Assembly (NCBI GenBank): GCA_025201805.1
Contig: MU619376.1
Location: 12,107-76,106, forward strand
Source of the DNA: Parasitella parasitica NRRL 2501
Lineage: Eukaryota > Fungi > Mucoromycota
Length of the DNA: 64,000 nt
Direction: 5' to 3'
Below, piece by piece: positions 29,829-64,000 of the stretch. Below the pieces are notes generated by a model. The model searched no databases, was not told where the DNA came from, and was given only the letters and a program-made list of their open reading frames with translations. The position numbers and the translations under genes were made by a program. Each line of letters begins with the position of its first letter. The first letter of the stretch is position 1.

Positions 29829-30845
29829 ATGACAGACATTAATTACAAAAGCGACCCACCACTTTACGACCTCCAAGATGTAATCCAACAGTACCAATCA
29901 CAACCAGAGTTGCTCAAACTGATTTTAACAAGCAAAGTAGAGGAAGACAAACGAAGAGCTGAGGAAGCAAAATTGCGTGCAAAGGAGCTCGATCTTTACT
30001 TTCAGCACAAGCGCAAGAAATCACACAAAATACTGCCTTCCATTTCACCCTCATTGAAAAAGGCTCGCTCTGCTTCATACGCTATCCCGCCTCAACAAGC
30101 ATCTGCCTTTGGCACTCCTTTCTCTGGTACTTCTGCTGGATCTGCATACCGCAGCCACCATTCCTCGATCTCATCCACGTCTTCCTTGTCCGGCTCAGTC
30201 TCATCATTGTCAGAACTTGAAAATGAGGACGAGGAAGAACAGGGTCATTTGGATCATCAACAACGTAGACACTCTGCTGCCGCTGCCATGCTGGCCATGG
30301 GAGGCGCTGCAATGAGCGACTCCAATATTGAAACCATCTCAAATGCCTATCCGTCGCCCATTGACGAGCATTTCAGTGATGGGAAAGAAGAAGAAGACGA
30401 AGACCTGAATAAGCCCCGTCGAAGACGGGAAATGCAACCCATCACTAAAATTGTGGAAACAAGAGAGTTTCCCTACGTTGACAATTATTTTTGGAAAAAT
30501 AATGGCAATACTGTCCAAAAGAAAACAGGCTGCAAGAGCATCTATTACAAATGCTCTAATAGTAACAAGGTACGATCGCAACGGGATTTGGCGGGGGGGA
30601 GAGTTGGATTAACGGGTTTCCCCGTGATTCATTTTATTGGTCTTGATGGCATATGAAATTCATGCTTATTGGGTTTTCACACGACTGTTCATTGGATGCT
30701 TTGACTAATGTAAAGTCTTTATATGTAATAGGGGTGCTCTGTAAACAAAACTGTAACCGCTAGACCGAACGGTGAATATCTTATAAAATACAGAGGCTGC
30801 CATCTACAGGAATGCGGCAGAGTTGAAAGAATACGAGATTTATAA
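29829..30845 (+). CDS. WRKY-like transcription factor (fungal WKNNGNT variant)
   Basis: 'DNYFWKNNGNTVQK...YYKC' followed, after an intron (~30570-30731), by 'GCSVNKTV...IKYRGCHLQEC' zinc ligands; stop at 30843-30845. Confidence 0.8.
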
Positions 30846-31449
30846 GACCAAGTCGAAAAGATATAATATACCAGAATCATTCAGCAATATTCATTCATCA
30901 AGCCATACAAACAATTGTAATTTAGCTCTCTCTCTCTCTCTCTCTACCGTCCCTTCTCTGAATCATACATTATTACATTCAATTATAAAATAAAATAAAA
31001 TAACCGACTCAACAAACATTTCTATTTTACACTTTTTGTATAATTATTTCACATACAACATGTCGAACGATTACAACACACTGGTCAGATTGCCTGGTTC
31101 CACGTTGGATCCCTGTACACAGCTGGTGTTGTATGACACTAATCCTCCATTATCAACATCAGCACCATCCGTACCATCGGCATCGTTGGCTGTCAGTCCA
31201 AACAAGAGATTGCCTCCACTAAAACGTCAACATAAACCACCGGCCATCATTATAACGAACGATAAGCAGAACAGTGTTAGCAGAGATGAGGACTATTCGC
31301 CCTGGTCTGGATGAAGCTTATCCATCAGTAATCTCTTTATGTTGGATACGGGTTTAGATGTAGCACATGGACACTATATGAGTTAAACTTTGTATTCAAC
31401 ATTGTTATTAATATTAAAGTCATGATGTAATGAAGTACAGTTATCTCGT

Positions 31450-31670
31450 AGTAAAAGGGTAGAATGATGTACTGTATTAATGTCAAGTTGGCATTTCTAT
31501 ATGCTAACATTGCTATCTGGGCCATTACTAACTGTATAATATACGTGGATACTATTGGACAAGTAGTAATTGACAGTAATGTATGGGGGTAAGTTTACGG
31601 TGATAAACTTCTTTATGATGATAGATGTTGATCAGACACTTCTGATCAATTGTGATTAGTAAAACTAACT
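31450..31670. repeat. Repeat A: ~220-bp segment, diverged inverted copy of 34121-34330
   Basis: 'agtaaaagggtagaatgatgtac...ctaacattgctatctgggccattact...gtgataaact...gatgttgatcaga' matches the reverse complement of 34121-34330 with scattered substitutions and small indels. Confidence 0.85.
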
Positions 31671-31684
31671 ATGCTTTTAATTAT

Positions 31685-31788
31685 TTACTACTAGCTGACC
31701 TGCTCGCTTCGCTCACGACAGCCATCGTCGCCCTATCGAGAGTGCAATCTCTTGATAAATATTTAATGTTCTCTTATTACTTTCAACA
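31685..31788 (-). repeat. Left inverted repeat = Helitron 3' terminus on the minus strand (CTAG at 31691-31694)
   Basis: Reverse complement of 36107-36210; contains GCTTCGC (GCGAAGC on minus) near the terminal CTAG, which is followed by T. Confidence 0.9.
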
Positions 31789-32105
31789 GATCAAATCTTT
31801 GCATGCACATTACTGACAGACTGGCAGGCTCATTGGCGCGTTATTTTCGATGGCATCCTGTTTCTCCCTCACTCAGTCCTACAGCGTACTGTCCGTTCCT
31901 TCTCCCGACCGGAAGATGAGCTACGGTCCGATCTTTAGATCTTTGGTCTTTTACATGTTATTTCCTTGACTCTCTTCATTTATACTATTTAATACTATTT
32001 CCTTATATATACCCACATCAATCTTTTTATTCCCTCAATATGACAGTTTAAGGGCTTTAAATAAAGGAGGCAAAACTCCCCTATGAAAAAAAAAAAAAAA
32101 AAAAA
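31778..32105 (+). mobile_element. 5'-truncated non-LTR retrotransposon (LINE) 3' end with poly(A) tail
   Basis: Encodes 'STDQIFACTLLTDWQAHWRVIFD', nearly identical to the LINE fragment at 45709-46056 (-). Followed by a 3' UTR, AATAAA (~32060) and poly(A) at 32086-32105. Confidence 0.85.
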
Positions 32106-32109
32106 TAGT

Positions 32110-33683
32110 TCTTTTACTGTTGTTATATATGAAAGTCGGGCTGGCCAAACCTTCTTACGATGTTGATGGCGTTCTGTATAGCTGCTGCATATAACGTGCT
32201 AATCTAATAAATGAACTTGGCAAAATTATTCTACTTCCAACTATACTCAAATCGGTGGATCCATCTTCCAATCTTATTGCATCCTCTAAACTGCTCAGTT
32301 AATGAGATCTTGGTAACTTTTGATTGTGTCTAAGAAACTGAAGATATTGTAGCTCAATCTTGGCGTATATATCCACTATTTAACCGCTGAAACAAATTGC
32401 CAATAAACGAAGATAACGATTGCCACCTCTAATCACTAATGTAAAAAAAAGCATAGTAGTTCATAGTAGTTACATTTTTGCTACTCAAAGAGATGGTCTT
32501 AATATTCCAATATGCGGTGCCATTATGAAACATCAAGACATAGGCCATCGCGTCATACCATTGATTCAATTCACTTATTCTCTAAAGAGAACTTCCAGTT
32601 ATAGGTCGAATTACAATTTCTATTGTTGTTTCTGGGTTATCGTCTCCAACAATGAGCACACCAATCTCGGTAGTTGGTGTGTTGTATCTCCTTTGATCTG
32701 GTGTACCTTCAGCTCTAAATACTGTAACATTGAAACATCAAGAACAAAGTTAGGGTCCTCTGCAATTAATCGAGCCATTGACTTGAAGTCATGAACAAAA
32801 CGATTTATGTCATGCATCAGTGCTTGAGGTTGGTCAAGGAGGTGATGTTAAAATGCTGGTTATGAGCGTGGCGGTTTCGAATCTCATTTCCTGAGTAGAG
32901 GATATAAATTTGAAGCAAATTTAGGTGCCTCGTCTACTCCTGGATGCAATGTTCTAATTCTATGATAAAGGCTGCCATGAATTCTAAATGAATGGCAACC
33001 TGCAGATGCATTGGTTATTGTCGAATTAAGGGTACAACCTAGTGAGGCGAACCTCAAAGCACTATTGTAAGCTCTTAGGTTTGACCTAAACTCCTTGCTT
33101 TTTCCGTCTGATCCTCTCAATAAATTGGCAACCAACTCAGGCAACTCAAGCAAAGGGTCAATAACATACTTACCTTGCCACAGCACAAAGAGAAATCGGG
33201 ATTTGTACTGGTGCCTCCATTCTTCTCTGAAGCCTACATGCATGCTTGACAATGGCGACAGATGCTATTCATTCCACCAAGATCATGGCGTTCGGTGACA
33301 GAGGGTGTATCTCTTCTGGCCATGTTGTGAGTATTGTTGTGCGTCGAGTTGGCGCACAATCTACTGGTAAATCGCAAATGACCTTCTTGTCCAAAGCTTG
33401 AACAAACACGACTGCTGGTTGTTGCATTATTAGCGCTGATTGTTTCTATTTGCTGATCTGATCTACTTCCATAGCTTTAGGTTGAGATCCTAGTTTATAC
33501 AAAAAATTCGATTATGATTGTAAAATGAAAACATATTTGTGGCATACGATTAGCAATGTTGTTAGCGCAATCACAATAAAAAGATCGACGATAGCCTATA
33601 CCACCACAACTTGCGCAAAGCCTGCTTGTAAAAAGTAAATGGCCTTTTTGACCACAGCTTGAGCAGATTCTGGTAGCAGGCAT
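32110..33683 (-). pseudogene. Helitron Rep/helicase N-terminal half (Zn-knuckle repeats plus Helitron_like_N region), frameshifted and truncated at Rep motif 1
   Basis: Across frames: 'CSSCGQKGH', 'EFRSNLRAYNSALRFASLG', 'FRIHGSLYHRI', 'DQRRYNTPT', 'YDAMAYVLMF', 'IVDIYAKIE', 'RIILPSSF', 'IVRRFGQPD'. These are conserved Helitron RepHel motifs in the expected order. Confidence 0.88.
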
Positions 33684-34120
33684 TTTGTGTTCGTAGTAAT
33701 AAAATGTGCCAACATATTATTAAATAGAACAGAGTGTACAACTTAAAAAATCGCCTTTGCTGGTTAGACCATATCCAATTTCGAGAGATTTGTCCGACCT
33801 TCAACATTATTCATTCTGTTTAGAGAGATTTTATTTTAAATGAAAATACATGTCAACTTATTTGCGTTGTTTCATACGCACATGTTTTACTTCTAATTTT
33901 TGTGAAATGTTTACGTATTTTCAATTAGTTTCAGAAAATGACGTTGTGCCTGAACTGAGAAACCAACTAAAAGGAATTAGCTCCATTTCTTCTTTGTGTA
34001 AGTTTGTTTTATTGATAGAATAAACTGACTTGGAATTTGACAGTTTCTACGAAGCGTATATAAAAAAAATTAGCAGACTGGCAGACTCCCCTTTTTGAAT
34101 TATTATTTTGATTGATTGAC

Positions 34121-34330
34121 AATTAGATTTACTATCACAATTCATCTGACACTTCTGATCAACATCAATCATCGTAAAAGAGTTTATCACCATAAGCTTA
34201 CCTCCATACATTGCTATTTGTCCAGTAATATCCACGTATAGTACTTGGTAAGTAATGGCCCAGATAGCAATGTTAGTAATTAGAAATACCAACTTGACAT
34301 TAACATAGTACATCATTCTACCCTTTTACT
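34121..34330. repeat. Repeat A': inverted copy of 31450-31670, in the intergenic region between Rep and the capsid-like gene
   Basis: Manual alignment with the reverse complement of 31450-31670. Confidence 0.85.
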
Positions 34331-34618
34331 TTATCACTGTATAATATCTATCTTTTACGGACGTGAACAACCTCCCCTAAATAGGCTTTTATACAAGAAC
34401 TCTATTCTACCGCAACACTTATATAAAGGTAAGCAATTTAACATTTTTCCATCTTTGTCTACATCAACTGTAGACTCAATCCCATCGACCGGAGCAACCC
34501 CATTTCATCCTTTTTAAATAGTGTTATCAACGTTCAATTCAGTAGATCCTGACAGTGGCCATAAACAATCGAAGAATTAAAACCCCAAGATCGCGATCAA
34601 TCTCAACCAAAACGCAAG

Positions 34619-35356
34619 ATGTCTTCTCCCCACGATGAGTTACCCCACGATGATTCAACTTCCAGTTTACTTTCCGGAGACTTTAATTCTAGTACTCAGC
34701 ATAGAATAAGCCCATCCAGCACTCACAGTGTAGCTCCGAGTGGAACCATGGAGACATACACTTCCAACGTGTCTCGTAGCATCGGTCACTTGGCTCATGG
34801 AGCCGACACCCCTGACGTTTCCGTTGAGAGTAACCTCTCGTCTCTGGATTTCCGCCTTGACAAGTCCCTCAACCAAATACCATCTGACTTAATTCGTAGT
34901 AACGTTATGTCCATCGAAGAGCGAAACGCGGTGTTACAAGCTCTCTTCGCGACTGTCCCTGGAACCCTTGATGACAGAGACAAGTCCGCCATCTTATTCT
35001 TCATCTGCTCTGTCGCCGTAATGAACGGTACTTCTGACATGGGCCTATACGGAGGGTCTACCATCTTACCTGGTGGCGGAGTATTTCACATGTGCGCTGT
35101 TCCCTCTTGCACGGATTACGCTATACGGCGTTTCTTCCGCTCATTGGCGGCAATTACGTACGAGATGCTCGAAAGCAACCACGAGTTGGCTTCTGCCGCT
35201 GCGGAGAAATGGGGTATGCCAAGCTCCCTTAAGTGCTTTGCATTTGACTATGCCGATGCTTTGACTGGTCTGCCCACCGAGACTCGTCGTCTGATCCAGG
35301 AGTTCAAGCGCCGCCGCATCCTTGCTGCTAATGCTAGACGAAGAGTTCGTCGATAA
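34619..35356 (+). CDS. Filamentous RNA-virus-like (potyvirid/flexivirus-type) coat protein homolog; endogenous viral element carried by a Helitron
   Basis: Intronless 245-aa ORF, GC-richer than its flanks, with a Ser-rich N-arm. Motifs 'MNGTS', 'IRRFFR' and 'SLKCFAFDYAD' parallel the potyvirus CP motifs 'ENGTS', 'LRQIM' and 'SLARYAFDFYE' in order and approximate spacing. TATAAA at ~34422. Confidence 0.72.
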   Translation: MSSPHDELPHDDSTSSLLSGDFNSSTQHRISPSSTHSVAPSGTMETYTSNVSRSIGHLAHGADTPDVSVESNLSSLDFRLDKSLNQIPSDLIRSNVMSIEERNAVLQALFATVPGTLDDRDKSAILFFICSVAVMNGTSDMGLYGGSTILPGGGVFHMCAVPSCTDYAIRRFFRSLAAITYEMLESNHELASAAAEKWGMPSSLKCFAFDYADALTGLPTETRRLIQEFKRRRILAANARRRVRR

Positions 35357-35671
35357 GGTCATTCTTGGGATGATCGCCGTCCAAATGACGGGCGCACTGA
35401 ACAATAGCGCATCAATTATGCTAAATCTTTCAACAGATCATTGCTTTTTTTTTTTTTTTTTTTTTTTTTTTTCTGAGACTAAATTAAATGTCCAAATGAA
35501 AGTAACCGATTAGGAAGACTTGTAAACATTCACTACCAGTGCACATAGTATGATATGTCATCATGTGACGAGTTATACCGACGACAAGGTGAGGTATGCT
35601 AAAGTATAGAGGTTGATCGAGCTTAGTAAGACGCACGAGAGACGTATTACGCTTGTCTGAACCTTGAACCC

Positions 35672-36112
35672 ATGGACGGTGCCGACAAATTTATGACCAA
35701 GGATGACCAACTCAGTTTATCCGCTTGCAGAGAAGGCATAAGCAATTGAACATTGGGATCTTTCAACAATTGCTTGAGTGATGCCTATCGTTTTATGACA
35801 AGAGTCGACAATTTCAAACATGGGAAAGATACTGTCACCATTCTTTCGTTGGCAAACCTTAAACAGCATGCGGCAGATATTCTGAGGACATCTACGGGAA
35901 ACAAACATTTGATGTACGGGTTTGACGTGGGGCAAATCCACGTACCTCAATTGAAAAGGTTTCTTTCGGTCGATATATCTAATTTGCAAACTGTCACCGA
36001 ACAACAAGACCTTCTTAGGTTTGCAGTACGCAATAAGAGATTGAACCGTTCCTGGATAAACAAGGTTCTATCCCGAGAACTCCGGATAACAATGCATGAG
36101 AAGGAGTGTTGA
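35672..36112 (+). pseudogene. ORF3 of the element: unknown protein with one in-frame TGA (35747-35749); its stop codon lies at the inner edge of the right terminal repeat
   Basis: ATG at 35672 is in frame with the 119-aa ORF 35753-36112; no recognisable domain. Confidence 0.45.
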
Positions 36113-36210
36113 AAGTAATAAAAGAACATTAAATATTTATCAAGAGATTGTACTCCCGATAGGGCGACGATAGCTGTCGTGAGCGAAGCGAGCAGGTCAG
36201 CTAGTAGTAA
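36107..36210 (+). repeat. Right inverted repeat = Helitron 3' terminus on the plus strand (GCGAAGC hairpin 36183-36189; CTAG 36201-36204)
   Basis: '...gtcgtgagcgaagcgagcaggtcagCTAGt': subterminal hairpin plus CTAG|T, the canonical Helitron 3' signature. Confidence 0.9.
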
Positions 36211-36485
36211 TAATTTAGATCAGAGTAAGAAATATTAGAATTAGGCAGATATTTTCACTACTGTCACAAGATCTGGTAAGAGTTGAACCTCTTTATAATA
36301 ACTGGATGTTTCATGTAAAGTGAGACATCTTGTAATGTGAATCATTACCCATGCCTGCCCATCAATAACAGTTGTCTGTCGTATTTCAAAATTTCACAAG
36401 AGATTGGTGTCTCAATGACGAAGATCATTCTTTTTAAAATCTGTAGATTTAGAGAACAGAATTTTCTATTGTTATTGTAAAAAAA

Positions 36486-40040: not shown

Positions 40041-40397
40041 GATTTGTTTTGAAAAAGAGGAAAGGAAAGGGGAAGAAATTGTATATTTACGCTATTTATG
40101 TGAAACGTGAAATTGGCAAATGAGATGCATAATGTGCTATTTGGCAAGGTATCTGCCCTCTCTGCGAAAATCTTCAGTGACGAGACAATCAGAACCGTGA
40201 ATACCCGTAGGATGGAACTGGACAATCTCTGGGTCTTGAAGAGGAAGGCCAGCACAAGAGACAGGCTGCTTGGAATCCCATTTATGCTCTTTTTTTTTTT
40301 TCGTCAATCGGTCTGTCAATAATGCGATAAAAGGCCTGTTCAAACCGCAACAACTCGTAGCCTTTTCTCTTCCCTTGCCTTTAGGACATTACTCATA

Positions 40398-43568: not shown

Positions 43569-45050
43569 CTGTCATTTTAGAGTTTCTGGAGAATAAGTTG
43601 AGGTTTCTGAAAATAAGTTTCAAGGTTTTTGATCATTTGTCCGGCGTTTCTGAAAAAAGCTGAGGGAGTTGATGATACAAGCTGAGAAGTTTCTGAGAGG
43701 AGAGAAATGCGTCCTGAAATAAAAAAAAAAAAAAGGAGAGTTTATAGGTAAAATCTCTGTTTATTCATGCTGGAAAAAAAAAAGAAAGATATCTACATCA
43801 TATCGGTGAGATTGAGGCAATCTTGAAAAAAAAGAGACAGAATGCCTAATCCAACCACGGCAATCACTCATAGTTACAGTTTTGCCTGCTTCCTTGATTC
43901 TGGGTGTCAATGTATCATTTGTATCTAATGCTGATCTTTTGACATGGTATTTGACTTTGGACCAAAATTCTTCAATGGGATTCAAAAATGGAGAGTATGG
44001 AGGCAGATAAACACATTTATGGCCTTTAGATTCATTAAGTTTTCGTATGCATCCATTTTTATGAATAGGTGCGTTGTTCATAACGATGTATTGTCCTGGT
44101 AGATTGTTCTTGTCCAGTACATTTAGAACATTTTCGAGATAGTTCATGAAATGCTCGGTTCTTGTTCCTAATTTCGCTGTGACTCTGACAGTTTTACCAT
44201 CGGCAGACCTCTTCTTGGAAGCAGATCCAAGCACCTCAGGCAACCTCAAAGAAATGTCGATGATACCCGCTGAAGAGATGGCACCAAGAATAGTGATGTT
44301 CCTACCCTTTGATTTAGGCACCAAAACCTTGCAAGGCTTTCCTTTTCTTGACCAAACTCTTGTTCTGCTGATGTAAAGATTGAATCCAGCTTCATCCAAA
44401 AAAAACACAGTTATTTTCAAAATCCATATCTTTGTCAGCCAGCCATCCTAATACAGCTTCTCTTCTTTTCTGCTTTGTTTCATCTGAATTTCTGTACTCA
44501 GATATTTGTTGAACTTTCTTGATTGATAGCGCGCAATTATCTCTGATAAAATGATAGAATGCTGTTCTGGAAATGACTACGTCTGGAAATTTCGGCATTA
44601 AAATTTCACGCATGTATTCGAGAGTGTACGTGCCACGATGGTCGATTAGTTCTCGAATAAAAAAATCCTGTGCTTTTCCTAAGATCTGAGCTTTTGGTGG
44701 CCCCCCTTGGTTTCCAGATATCAGGGACTTCTTGATGTTCAGTATAATACTGAGCATACGGTAGGCAGTCTGCAGGATGATACTAGTTTTATTTGCTGCT
44801 GCTTTGATGGGCCATCCTTCTTGCGTTAAGCCGCAAATTCAACTACTTGTTCTCTGGTATATTTTCTGCAAGTCTTCCTCGTTTTGTTTTGTCTTAACGA
44901 TTGCTTATATCTCTGAGATTTATTTTGCTCTGCTTCAGAGTCGTCTTCATCATGATCTGATCCTTGAAGGTCTTCTACCAGAGATTGATCCATCTCTATA
45001 TATTCTTCATCATCTTCATTTTCATATTGATTCTCTGTACGATCACCGTG
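43569..45050 (-). mobile_element. Tc1/mariner (IS630-like, DDE_3) transposon, inactive
   Basis: HTH region and DDE domain 'FLDEAGF...MNNAPIH...YLPPYSPFLNPIEEFWSKVK'. The second catalytic Asp reads Asn and there is a frameshift at a poly-A run (~44400). Repeated GTTTCTG(A)...AAG motifs at 43580-43700 look like subterminal repeats. Confidence 0.85.
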
Positions 45051-45582: not shown

Positions 45583-45708
45583 AAACCCAGCACATTTCTA
45601 GTGTATATACACACGTATAAAAGTGCTTGGCAAGATTTTTGAGATTGTGATGGGGTCATAAGAGTGGGAGGTGGGTAGCAAAGGCAAGCGCTTGCAGATG
45701 GGATAGGA

Positions 45709-46260
45709 TCATAAAAAAGCAAGATCGAAAATCATGCGCCAATGAGCCTGCCAGACAGCCAGTAATGTGCATGCAAAGATTTGATCTGTTGAAAGTAGAG
45801 TACAAGGTAATTGTTCAACTCGTGGAAGAGGATTGTCGGAACAAGCCAAGATGGAGACCAGTTGATGGACGAGTGCATGGTCAGAGAGAGCGAGTGGAGA
45901 GATATAATAGCTTTGGAATATGGAGTTTAAGTGGGCAAGAAAAAAGAAAATGGCAGAGGTCTTCTTCCGCTTGGCCAGAGCAAAGAGAGCAGAAAGGAGA
46001 GGAATGGAGATGCGACATGAGTCGGTGAAGGAGAGACTTGGTAGGGATTTTAGCATGTAAATCTCGATACCACACCGTACGAGAAGAGAGAGGGATGACT
46101 AGCGACCAAAAGTGCGACCACTCCGTAGTAGGGGGCGGTAAAGATGAGGCGAGTGGAGGCGAGTGGAGGCGGAGGCAGTAAGGACCGATAGCAGGTGATA
46201 CTGTTGAGAGGTATGCGTCGAGAACAACGAGTCAAGGAAGAGGAGGCCGTCGTCGTACTA
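45709..46260 (-). mobile_element. Non-LTR retrotransposon fragment (zf-RVT zinc-binding region, C-terminus of ORF2), degenerate
   Basis: 'WYRDLHAKIPTKSLLH...CSLCSGQAEEDLCHFLFSCP' (CxxC...H..F.C) and 'LLAVWQAHWRMIFD'. Confidence 0.85.
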
Positions 46261-46474
46261 GGTACGAAGAGGCTCGAGCAAAATGAACGTAAGGTTGGAG
46301 GAAAGAGATGGGAATGTTGTAAAGTCCTGCGTACAGTAGGATATGCTAAATATAGTCAGTATATTTAAAGAAGAGAAAGAGACTGACTTTATTATATAGT
46401 AATTGAATAGGTTATTTATATGATTATTAGAATGACTTGGCAATATATACAGTACATGTGGCAAAGGGTGCTGC

Positions 46475-48360: not shown

Positions 48361-51300
48361 CTATCTGTATCATCCACTTCAAATAATCCAAATGCTTGCT
48401 CATATACACGATTCGTGGGAAGAGACACGATTTTGCAGAGGTTAGTATTTTAATAGTAATACGGATTCCCTTTACCGATGATATTCTCCAGGTTAAGGCT
48501 CACTCGCTTTTGGTAACAAGATTCTCAATAGTTGAGGCAAAAGGTCGCCGGTTTCAAGAATACGCTCCTTCGACCCACTCATGGCTTTAATTCAAAGACT
48601 ATCGCCAATGGTAATGGCAATACAATACAGGAAGTATCTATATTTCGCTGCTTCACTTTTAAGGGCAAACACGATTTACACACAGGCTTATCGCCTCTGC
48701 GACCGGCTTCTATCATGCTGAAGGGCTTTGTAAGGCATGGTGGGAGCTTTTTATCGTGAACAGTCTCCGTAGACTTGGAAGCTACTCTTGCTTTGACACA
48801 ACTAAATGCAAAAAGAGTTGACTCGTTTGCTTGCAAACAAGGTGTCTATTGAGATTTGGTTTGTCTCATTAGCATTCATGTCTAGATTTTACATCCATGA
48901 TAAAGAATACTTTTACTAATCTACTTAAGGGTGGACAGCAAATGTTCACTATGCAAGGGACTCTCTAAAGGCCAGGATATTACGGTTCAAGGCCATCCAT
49001 GGTACTAAATGCGTCTCGATAAGGTTGTCACTGGAGGTCAAGGCTCTTGTACAAAGGAATTTGAGGATTGTCTAAATAACTTGATCAACCCGATTAATCA
49101 TTCTAATCAACTTGAATACCTTTTACAAATAATTTGATTATCCTTTGCAAATAACCCCAATTTTTATTTTAAACAACTCGAAATAACTTGTGTGTTCATT
49201 CCAAAACTGTGATGATGGTTTATGATTACAATTGCTCAACTTTCAAAATGGATCTCATTGCACCAGCCACATACAGAATGATCAAGCTAAAATCATTCTT
49301 TATCCCTCGAAGCCTCTATGATCTCTCTACTCTGCACACTGCCACAGCCTCCTTGAAGCAAGTCAATCTTTAGGTCAAGAAACAAGTCGCCTTGATGAAT
49401 GATGCCACCAGAAACCGTATCAGTGACTCCCTAGAGTGGTTGCGTTTACCTGTGATCATGAAATCATAAATAAGCCATTGCTTCTTTTTACACCAACATC
49501 CATACCCTCCACATGTAAGCATCATTCTCTTACGACATTTCTCACATCACATATATGTGGTCGCTATTGCTCAAAGTGAGCATTGCTTGTCTTTTTTCTT
49601 TTTTCTTTTAGCTCTCTTTATACCGTGTTCTATTTCACATATATGTTAACCCCATAGTACAATACAACATATTTCTTTTAATAAATTATTAGTCTAGTGA
49701 ATTATTGCTAATACAGTCCACAAAAGAGCTCTATCTTTTTCTTGATGAGAGCGGCAGTGTTCACAGTCAAAGGATTGAATGGATGCAGCAGTCCAACGAG
49801 CGTGGCAGATACGGTCGCATAGTTGGAGATTCGAAGGTGGCAACAAAAGAGATGATGTTACGTGTCCATGAAGCCAAAGAGCGTCCGGTGGCAAGATCAA
49901 GACCACAAAAGGCTCCTTTTTTTTTTGCCTGAATGGCAATGCCAAACGCCTTGGAAGCGGCATGTCGTAATCAAGTCTCGTTAGCTGGTCTCGCCAGCAT
50001 TTTCTTTGACTTTCTGCTGTATGCTTTTGTTGCTGCTACGACACAAATATGTGGTAGTGTCCCTTGTTTTGACGAGCATCCAAAGCGCACCAAGCTAGAT
50101 ACATTCAACAGTTAGCCCTCTCGTTTTTGTATCAAAAACAGAAATGCACTCAAGGATGGATAATGTATAAAAAAGCTACTCATTGTCAGCATCACAATGC
50201 TGATCGACGTAAATCGTGTCGGTAGAAGCTGAATCTACACTTGAAAACGCTTTTCTTTCCAAATCATTCGACCAAAAATAAAAATAATAAACTAGCTGCT
50301 AGCATACGAGCCCGAAAATTTGTCGACTGGGTCTTCTTCTTTTCAGGCAAGGTTCTTAACATGCATCTTTAGGACATTATTAAAATTACATAAACCTTAG
50401 TTGTTGGTCACAACTACATTAATCGATTGACTGGTATCGTGTTATTTGGCGGATGAGTGAAAAGAAGAATGTCTCTCGCTCACTCTGAGGACATAGCCTT
50501 CCCTTAATATTAGAAAACACTTATCGTCCAGCAGATGAACAGAATTGATTTATTTTGTAAGATTTAACATTGCATTATTTGGGTAAGCCCGCTTAAATTA
50601 TCACCGTAGTGAAACGAAGGTCAACATAGTTTTGGAGGGGGGGGGGGCGGATTACAGCTCGTAAAACTTTAAATGTGGAGCAATACGGTCCCATCGTTAG
50701 ATAGCAGCCCAATTTTAGAACAACATTCTGGTGGTGATGATGTGGCATTATCAAACATTTTTTCCTCAAATTTCACTTCTCTACTCCAACTCGTAGATCA
50801 TGGTTGTATTACTAGCTCCTATGGCGTCTGTGGCCCTTTGACCACGTTTTCCGAGTCAATGGGTGTGCAGTGTTCTTCCGTTCATCGGCGATGCGTAATG
50901 TGGCGTGTTGCTCAGGCTTGGAACAACTACAATGTTTCGTATTGCTTGAAATGCTTTCTGAATTATTTTAGCTATTACTCACAGTGTTTCTCATTTTAGA
51001 ATCTTCCTGATCAAATCACGCCTTGGGATGTACTGCGTAGTTTCCAACCGTACTTGAAGGTGAAGAACGAGAGCCTACAGTATGTTCGAAACGTTTTATC
51101 AAGATTGCAGTTTAAGATAAACAATATGTATTAGACTAATAGAAGGCTCTGGGATGCAGTGGAATTTTGAATGTGCACGGAGCTCAAGATGCTGGTTATC
51201 GCATGTACCAACGAAACAATTCCAGCTATAACGACCATATTCTCAGCACACAACTAGTATATATATATGGCTTTTTATTTTATATTCAATGTATACCTTT

Positions 51301-62689: not shown

Positions 62690-63720
62690 GCTATACAACT
62701 GTCCCAGAATAATAATGAATGCTCAATCCAAGTTTGAAAATTTTCTTTGCTGATATGTTCTGATGCTTTGGTGATGTGCTTGCTGATTTTCGAATTTTTT
62801 TTTTCTAACTGATGCTGGATCCTTGTTTACTACACCTTTTAGCTTGGACCAAAACTCCTCTATAGGATTTAAAAAAGGAAGAAGGACTGGTAAATAGATT
62901 ATTTCGTATCCACGTTGTCGGATCCAATCTTTAACATACAGAGTTTTGTGAATAGTAGCATTATCAAGAACTAAATACTTGTATTTCAAACCAGCAATGT
63001 CAATTGCACTGAGCACTTGCTCTATAAATTCTAGAAAGTCATTATTTTTGGTTCCTTTTCTTTTTACAGATCATTTTTCTGATCTTTGACGTTTTGCTCC
63101 AACCGCGGGTAGTTGTTGTTCAAGGATGACCTCTTTTCTTAAAAGGCAATAACACCATCTTTGGTGATGGCGCTTAAAATAGTAATACTCGGACCTTTAG
63201 GTTCGACTTTGCTCACCATATAAACGATGCGTGTTTCGATTAAACCCTTTCGTCAATAAATACACATTGCCCCCCATAAAATCAATCCCTTCAATCTTCC
63301 AAGAAATCACTTCATCTTGTCGCTTAGTAATGGTGTCTGGGGTATTTCGTGGGTGAATACGCTTATAAGTAAGATGGCATTTTTTCTTCGTATAGGTTGC
63401 AATTGTTCGAGATGTTTAGCAAAGTCTGTCAGTTATATTTTGAATTGCCAAGATTGGCTTATTTTTCACCAATAAAAAAAAATAAAAACAGTACACACAA
63501 AAACGATTCAAATACTGTACATAGTATAGTTCTTAAACAAAGTTTATTTATTATTTATTTTTTTATATTCTTTCCATGTTGAAACACATTAGCAAGTGTT
63601 TTTGCGAGTAACGGATATAAGCTGCACAGCGTTTGGCGGTATCAGTTTTGGTAGCTTCTGCAACCCTGTCAGCAATCATTTCTTTCTTTTTAAGGGGTTC
63701 TTGACGAGCTTCTGACTTGA
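62690..63720 (-). mobile_element. Tc1/mariner (DDE_3) transposase pseudogene
   Basis: 'FIDE', 'ITILSAI', 'GTKNNDFL', 'LVLDNATIH', 'YLP..PFLNPIEEFWSKLK' across broken frames. Confidence 0.8.
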
Positions 63721-64000
63721 TTTTGATGAATACTCTTTTAAGTTCAAAAAGTTTCTTGAATTGCTTTCACAACATCCCAACTTGCTATAGGTTAATGATG
63801 CTTCATCACTGCCTTTCATAAAAACATTCTATGCTTAAATTATCAATAGTTAGTAAAGTTCAATGTAGTTATCTATAAGCTTGAACAAAAATGATATCAA
63901 AGCAAAACAGTCTCGATAAACACCTTGTTTGCAAAGCAAACAAGTCAACTCTTTTTTTCATTTAGTTGCGTCTTAGCCAAGGGTGGCGCTCAAGCCTACG

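Follow-up and report, generated by a model that had tools for sequence, protein, structure and literature searches.

A filamentous-type coat-protein gene, single-copy and transcribed, in a fungal nuclear genome

Background

How does an open gene for what looks like the coat protein of a filamentous RNA virus come to stand in a fungal chromosome, and does the fungus keep it for a purpose? Endogenous RNA-virus genes are known in fungi, and for Mucorales their mechanism and significance are described as not well understood in the accessible part of one report (PMC11351042). Our literature search, with most subscription papers outside its scope, turned up neither the locus studied here nor any fungal genome with a described coat gene of filamentous type. 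A first-pass annotation of the 64-kb stretch of DNA analysed in this study (hereafter, the window) had proposed an intact, potyvirid-like coat-protein gene (CP) in a fungal nuclear genome.

Several known systems are of use for comparison; for each, the statements rest on a partial text of the source. RmVV1 of Rhizopus has seven poly(A) segments, Met-Hel and the RdRp being on different ones; assemblies of Rhizopus, Circinella, and Mucor contain hypothetical proteins that match these segments, for which the authors suggest endogenization (PMC11351042). The vivivirids (e.g. Fusarium asiaticum vivivirus 1) have monocistronic poly(A) segments, including a Mtr-SF1H segment without RdRp (PMC12282112). 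The families Potyviridae and Potyliviridae encode one polyprotein with an SF2 helicase (preprint 10.64898/2026.08.03.742603).

In the present study, we examined the reading frame, predicted fold, relatives, transcript, neighbourhood, and allelic variation of the gene, and then weighed the possible routes by which it reached the chromosome.

Results

The gene is the following frame:

34619..35356, plus strand: coat-protein (CP) ORF, a single open frame of 245 amino acid residues

The hallmark motifs named in the first-pass annotation are present: N136 (position 35024) in NGTS, R170 (35126) and R174 (35138) in IRRFFR, and D210 (35246) in FAFDY. In an alignment of the CP ORF with its 18 relatives (see below), only five columns are invariant in all 19 rows (S139, R170, R174, A177, and D210), and the Ser, Arg, and Asp columns are among them. 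The low-complexity arm proposed to precede the core also exists, as a long, Ser-rich N-arm. The C-terminal tail is short, with 37 residues beyond the [FY]D motif versus 47-72 in all 18 relatives; it is Arg-rich, with 11 basic residues among the last 25. The frame is thus fully open, as had been claimed, but 'intact' is an overstatement. Similarly, 'intronless' applies to the coding sequence and not to the transcript, which has two leader introns. The GC content of the CP ORF is 0.508 versus 0.395 for the whole window, in agreement with the claim that the gene is GC-richer than the host DNA; however, its excess over coding DNA is small, because five host exons reach 0.42-0.49 (GC3 0.41-0.48, versus 0.52 in the CP ORF).

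When the CP ORF was used alone, the Pfam search matched no family, viral or cellular, so that the competing assignment to a cellular protein family gained nothing; the atlas search gave nothing usable, and the PDB search gave only a weak hint, the coat protein 4DOX (E 0.49). An exhaustive protein search gave 20 hits, namely the ORF itself, one false hit, and 18 proteins of 140-285 residues with 24-39% identity to the CP ORF; P0006 (846 residues) was left out as a relative because it matched the low-complexity arm only. A word-indexed protein search found the ORF itself only and, with the alignment as query, three proteins. The relatives (among P0002-P0030) make up 18 clusters of filamentous-type coat proteins that all score below the Pfam cut-offs, and one of them is misnamed 'phage tail protein X' by its source. 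In the profile comparison suggested by the first-pass annotation, the ORF has no Pfam match, but nine of the 18 relatives have sub-threshold matches to Flexi_CP, Poty_coat, or Closter_coat (Poty_coat at most 15.3 bits versus a cut-off of 27). All 22 rows that the profile built from the family returned from the PDB are coat proteins (best E 4.5e-8, a potyvirus coat protein; 4DOX, E 5.9e-7), and this profile aligns the triad motifs of CP with NGTS and AFDF of the potyvirus proteins. The leave-one-out profile score of the CP ORF (138.8 bits, rank 13 of 19) is unremarkable; therefore, the core is not visibly decayed.

For the fold, we used an AF2 model built with 19 sequences (pLDDT 89.6) and set aside a single-sequence model (pLDDT 42.7). 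In VIA, the best matches were JGMV (Z 13.6), PVX (13.2), and PepMV (12.8), at rmsd above 5 A; the top two alignments cover 167-168 residues at rmsd 5.3-5.7. The next unrelated row had Z 4.6, with phlebovirus N in between at 6.0 and 4.9. In Foldseek, potyvirus coat proteins ranked first (TM 0.64-0.66; PVX 0.60), so that the structural check named in the first-pass annotation came out in favour of a filamentous-virus coat protein. Among predicted viral proteins, the poty-, potex-, carla-, and closterovirus coat proteins were intermixed in their likeness to the model (13-25% identity). CP is thus predicted to carry the helical core fold of flexuous filamentous virus coat proteins. As the poty- and potexvirus matches are about equal (Z 13.6 and 13.2), CP belongs, according to the model, among the flexuous-filament coat proteins but to none of the described families, and is equally distant from these. 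The term 'potyvirid-like' is supported by the fold only; identity to potyvirus, potexvirus, carlavirus, and closterovirus coat proteins is 10-25% and alike for all four, and the helicase adjacent to CP is of type SF1, not SF2.

Among the 18 relative clusters, 17 are recorded only on contigs shorter than 2 kb, and one on contigs of 2.4 and 6.8 kb. Short contigs are the norm in this collection and the DNA was examined for one relative (contig L001), so the segmentation of the other relatives' viruses can only be inferred. On L001, P0019, from the cluster with the longer contigs, follows an RdRP_1 frame, which we take from its motifs to be poty-like; therefore, the CP family also serves unsegmented viruses. 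In L001 (1-2135), the coat protein is in another frame after RdRP_1, as either a separate ORF or the product of an assembly frameshift in a poty-like polyprotein. In the tree, the L001-type pair P0016/P0028 is separate (support 100/100), and the CP ORF is on a long, unplaced branch. No relative was found when viral contigs were scanned with P0001, P0002, or the helicase frame, and four marine loci from a metagenome scan with P0002 were rejected (E 6.6 against the CP profile). Protein searches found no close CP homologue in any other genome.

Copy number was judged from the depth of sequencing runs. The stretch was found in seven of the 16 listed runs, from six studies, and three of these runs may represent its source. 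In the DNA runs X3, X5, and X6, the depth of the CP ORF was 31.6, 38.2, and 30.4, versus 29.8-40.6 for the flanks, and the repeats around CP were many times deeper than the ORF. The window carries intron-bearing eukaryotic genes (TCP-1, LIM-RhoGAP, BCS1, and OST48, by Pfam); judging by the style of the genes and the size of their introns, the host is probably a fungus of Mucorales type. CP is a single-copy nuclear gene; the flank-level depth in the three DNA runs and the spliceosomal introns in an RNA run bear out the nuclear location given in the first-pass annotation.

The transcript was studied in X4, the only RNA run that we found. No run holding the stretch is recorded as RNA, and X4 was taken as such from its introns: GT-AG joints occur there in neighbouring host genes and are absent from the DNA runs. 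X4 provides contigs only, which carry neither strand nor expression level. A 913-nt contig covers 34520-35432, including the CP ORF. The features of the transcript are as follows.

34123..34330, minus strand: repeat A', a multi-copy element, 81% to 31450-31668, which provides leader exons
34248..34308, plus strand: leader intron 1, 61 nt, GTAAGT..AG, within repeat A' (X4 joint 34246>34308)
34331..34618, plus strand: AUG-free upstream stretch, single-copy; no ATG versus 2.3 in shuffles (P 0.05)
34429..34521, plus strand: leader intron 2, 93 nt, GTAAGC..AG (X4 joint 34426>34520; unspliced in X3, X5, and X6)
35357..35426, plus strand: 3' flank of CP, likely the 3' UTR of the coat segment, without its own poly(A), within the RNA contig 34520-35432

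CP is transcribed as a spliced RNA, with one intron inside a repeat; the RNA-seq check proposed in the first-pass annotation is thus answered, in one RNA run, by a transcript spliced through two GT-AG leader introns. Both upstream ATGs are in intron 1 and are therefore absent after splicing, and the spliced leader (340 nt) has no ATG versus 3.6 in shuffles (P 0.0065). The upstream stretch, the CP ORF, and the 3' flank together make up 1,096 nt of unique sequence with a single ORF. The stretch 34331..34618 is likely a viral 5' UTR, and repeat A' likely provides the promoter. In 35606-35972, within the helicase stretch described below, RNA contigs of X4 are present as well, at a mean depth of 46.7.

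On the 3' side of CP is a second viral piece, in the opposite orientation.

35427..35444, plus strand: linker from the CP flank to the poly(A), 18 nt; nucleotides 1-14 are shared with the LINE piece at 31780 and with 45782-45795
35445..35472, minus strand: poly(A), 28 nt, 11 nt past the stop of the last helicase frame
35473..36106, minus strand: viral SF1 helicase remnant (PF01443), broken and 5'-truncated, C-terminal half

PF01443 matched the minus strand at 35720-36067 with 24.4 bits versus a cut-off of 21. The remnant has motif-like stretches across three frames, presumably motifs III to VI of alpha-like viral helicases, and one in-frame stop. The neighbouring 'ORF3' of the first-pass annotation, which we take as the plus-strand frame 35750-36112, is therefore a reading of the wrong strand. 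The 28-nt poly(A) is probably the tail of the helicase RNA; this reading rests on position and orientation, because long A/T runs are common in the window (11 runs of at least 18 nt). The CP and helicase pieces abut tail-to-tail via the 18-nt LINE-like linker, whose 14-nt word has three matches versus 0.04 expected, and the other end of the helicase remnant borders on 11 nt from the same LINE junction, inverted. The pieces differ in GC content (CP 0.51, helicase 0.42). None of the 83 window frames of 100 or more residues has an RdRp match in Pfam. Searches for helicase homologues were empty of named relatives; the atlas matches were below 0.9 and of SF1 type.

The two viral pieces are within a nest of transposons.

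31450..31668, plus strand: repeat A; its other copies run straight into sequence like that from 36234 onward (joints 31585>36234 and 31678>36234)
31665..31788, minus strand: repeat B, inverted partner of B', high depth
31778..32105, plus strand: LINE-like 3' piece, 5'-truncated, with poly(A) at 32086-32105; its LINE status beyond 31851 is putative
32884..33790, minus strand: 5' part of a Helitron transposase, broken (Helraiser 7LCC, E 4.5e-11)
36107..36229, plus strand: repeat B', with CTAG at its end as in Helitron 3' ends; matches 31665-31788 in inverted orientation (92%)
45700-46400, minus strand: decayed end of a LINE-like ORF2, including a zf-RVT domain, matching 31778-31851 and the linker at 35427

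Since other copies of repeat A continue directly into sequence like that from 36234 onward, a 4.5-kb block interrupts repeat A here. Within the LINE-like piece, 31778-31851 is 93% identical to 45724-45797, beside the zf-RVT frame. Repeat B' has the 11 nt of the LINE junction in common with repeat B. The neighbouring 'Rep' of the first-pass annotation is not viral but the N-terminal Helitron transposase fragment matching 7LCC, and the repeat boundary at 33790 is marked by loose contig ends in a TC context. Capture of CP by this Helitron was rejected, as CP is single-copy and outside the 33790-31684 element. No significant Helitron-type hairpin was found at the CTAG ends (z -0.76 and 0.79).

Other features of the window were recorded as well. 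The transcript of the host gene 29829-31827 (plus strand), in which we recognised a WRKY-like motif (no Pfam match at 1e-4), crosses repeat A and splices out 31589-31694, its 3' splice site being the CTAG of repeat B; it is an exonisation of the same transposon nest. Remnants of Tc1/mariner-type DDE_3 transposases are at 43764-44838 and 62726-63070 (both minus strand), and a short frame at 40137-40388 (minus strand) resembles, to our eye, a fragment of the succinate dehydrogenase flavoprotein, possibly a pseudogene piece. A second inverted repeat pair (48768-48870 and 63890-64000) is 79% identical over 111 nt.

We then considered whether the CP frame is under selection. An allele in X5 has seven differences in the CP ORF, six non-synonymous and one synonymous, in 556 non-synonymous and 179 synonymous sites (neutral expectation, about 5.3 to 1.7). 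The chance of at least six non-synonymous differences of seven is 0.001 at omega 0.1, 0.015 at 0.2, and 0.05 at 0.3; seven changes between two alleles are a small sample, and within-species variation inflates pN/pS. None of the six amino acid changes falls in an invariant column. The CP contig is the more variable part, with allele differences at 11 of 1133 sites versus 16 of 3820 for the right flank (P 0.037), and this, like the short tail of CP, fits weak selection. Lesions number about four in the roughly 205 codons of the helicase and none in the 245 codons of CP (P 0.043, or 0.137 if the short tail of CP is counted as a lesion). In simulations, the probability that a neutral CP frame stays open is 0.48 at 1% divergence; at 5% with indels, it is 0.03. 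CP is present as near-identical DNA in runs that bear the labels organism A and organism B, and protein searches found no diverged orthologue. No empty site was seen among the runs examined. X8, X10, and X11 lack both the words of the stretch and its unique flanks at 96% likeness, and are uninformative on the presence or absence of CP because the flanks are missing too. Given their identical species or sample label, this lack of the flanks suggests mixed labels or distinct lineages.

Strong constraint at the protein level is thus rejected, and weak selection, later arrival, or a role at the RNA level is compatible with the data. Since CP is open next to a helicase that carries about four lesions (P 0.04-0.14), some selection is possible. 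The first-pass annotation had argued for purifying selection or domestication from a gene that is open while Rep and ORF3 are broken. This argument is weakened, because Rep is a host transposon and the allele ratio is 6:1, a comparison of low power. Its alternative, more recent acquisition, fares better: recent or unselected acquisition fits the data better than selection, although selection on the frame is possible.

Discussion

We consider that the CP locus arose when a LINE enzyme copied two segments of a segmented mycovirus, and that it is expressed from a repeat-derived leader and is mostly unselected; we give this reading a probability of roughly 0.55. The source would have been a polyadenylated, segmented virga/vivi-like mycovirus, whose coat segment and helicase segment may have been copied into the fungal chromosome by a LINE reverse transcriptase, both pieces probably from one virus in one entry event. 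The tail-to-tail joint via a LINE-like linker and a poly(A) points to LINE reverse transcription of two segments. The signs of a LINE retrocopy are the poly(A) and the 5' truncation of the helicase piece; the CP piece has no tail. No direct target-site duplication was found at the viral block, as the flanking LINE-like words are inverted, not direct; this arrangement suggests template switching by the LINE reverse transcriptase or break repair. The signs of a segmented source are that the SF1 helicase ends beside a poly(A) with no RdRp after it and that 17 of the 18 relative clusters are known from short contigs only. Repeat A' would then drive transcription of CP, and the AUG-free leader would allow translation into an RNA-binding coat monomer without its own virus to package. 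The fungus would gain little or nothing from it.

The evidence may also be read as an antiviral locus co-opted by the fungus, which keeps the frame because the CP monomer would interfere with how related viruses assemble or uncoat, or because the RNA would feed small-RNA silencing, in which case coat-sense and helicase-antisense RNA would be the source of small RNAs. The open CP beside a badly broken, co-inserted helicase (P 0.04-0.14), the spliced AUG-free leader, and the retained RNA-binding triad are in its favour, as are the RNA contigs, of either strand, over the helicase stretch. In addition, the coat protein of PVY lacking 40 C-terminal residues still makes RNA-containing particles, according to the title of entry 8OPE, and a role at the RNA level would not require low dN/dS. 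However, six of the seven allele differences alter an amino acid (P 0.015 at omega 0.2 and 0.05 at 0.3), and protein searches gave no close homologue in any other genome. We regard co-option as a serious but somewhat unlikely explanation. Its fullest form, in which a transposon promoter and a spliced leader yield a dominant-negative, tail-shortened CP, read-through is antisense to the helicase, and CP reveals the capsid type of RmVV1-like viruses of Mucorales, is more doubtful still.

The difference in GC content (0.51 versus 0.42) and the contrast in decay between the pieces fit different ages or different viruses and count against a joint origin; the lesion-free state of CP, with only 3% of simulated frames open at 5% divergence, favours selection on the frame or later arrival of CP. 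CP could thus come from an unsegmented poty-like virus of the Potyliviridae type and the helicase from another alpha-like virus, captured at different times. Such a history would agree with the family member that follows an RdRP_1 frame on L001 and with the potyvirus coat protein as the best solved match of the profile. We nevertheless hold it to be improbable: the CP ORF starts with an ATG of its own behind a 288-nt AUG-free leader, RdRp-like frames are absent upstream of it, the pair P0016/P0028 (100/100) excludes it, though its branch is long and unplaced, and the pieces abut via one 18-nt linker. An assembly chimera or contaminating viral sequence is scarcely credible. No listed contig of the three DNA runs spans 35434 to about 35950, but such holes prove nothing; against them stand the presence of the stretch in seven of 16 listed runs from six studies, the flank-level depth in three DNA runs, the spliceosomal introns in the RNA run, and the diverged allele in X5.

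The preferred reading, a copy of two segments, has its closest counterparts in segmented mycoviruses. A helicase that ends a poly(A) RNA without RdRp, together with a stand-alone capsid gene, is the arrangement known from viviviruses and RmVV1. The capsid segment of vivivirids has a poty/clostero-like helical fold with TM 0.61 to SPMMV, and CP has 0.60 to the same entry; however, according to the partial text, vivivirids are exogenous, are found in ascomycetes and rusts, and have a coat protein of 295 residues versus 245 here (PMC12282112). Their (CAAAA)n 5' motif was not seen at the CP locus, and the systems are compared by description (PMC12282112); the main text of the vivivirid paper has no occurrence of 'endogen' (PMC12282112). 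RmVV1 is likewise likened to the CP locus by description only: in the part of the report available, no capsid is assigned, RNA7 being a hypothetical protein, and no locus structure or expression is described for the endogenous matches (PMC11351042).

With the coat proteins of Potyviridae, Potyliviridae, and Alphaflexiviridae, CP has in common the predicted fold (Z 10.8-13.6) and the Ser/Arg/Asp triad. Unlike in Potyviridae and Potyliviridae, CP is a stand-alone ORF with an AUG-free leader, not the end of a polyprotein after the RdRp, and the helicase beside it is SF1, not SF2, a difference that applies only if the pieces share a source. The domesticated, totivirus-like STORM genes of Scheffersomyces likewise stem from non-retroviral RNA viruses and lie close to transposons in the nuclear DNA of a fungus; as far as the partial text goes, they are an array of four dsRNA-virus genes that at least seven genomes have retained for at least 15 My (PMC13756089). 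The CP locus, in contrast, consists of a single filamentous-type gene, found in one species group and without demonstrated constraint.

The CP locus preserves traces of its capture route, in the form of a poly(A), a LINE-derived linker, and two viral genes placed tail-to-tail, and it shows how a neighbouring repeat can turn a viral insert into a spliced transcript. Were the antiviral reading true, the locus would offer a natural fungal example of coat-protein-mediated protection. The locus also ties 18 environmental coat proteins to a fungal host, and it leads to the prediction of helical capsids for the virga-like viruses with segmented genomes in these fungi, with RNA7 of RmVV1 as a candidate.
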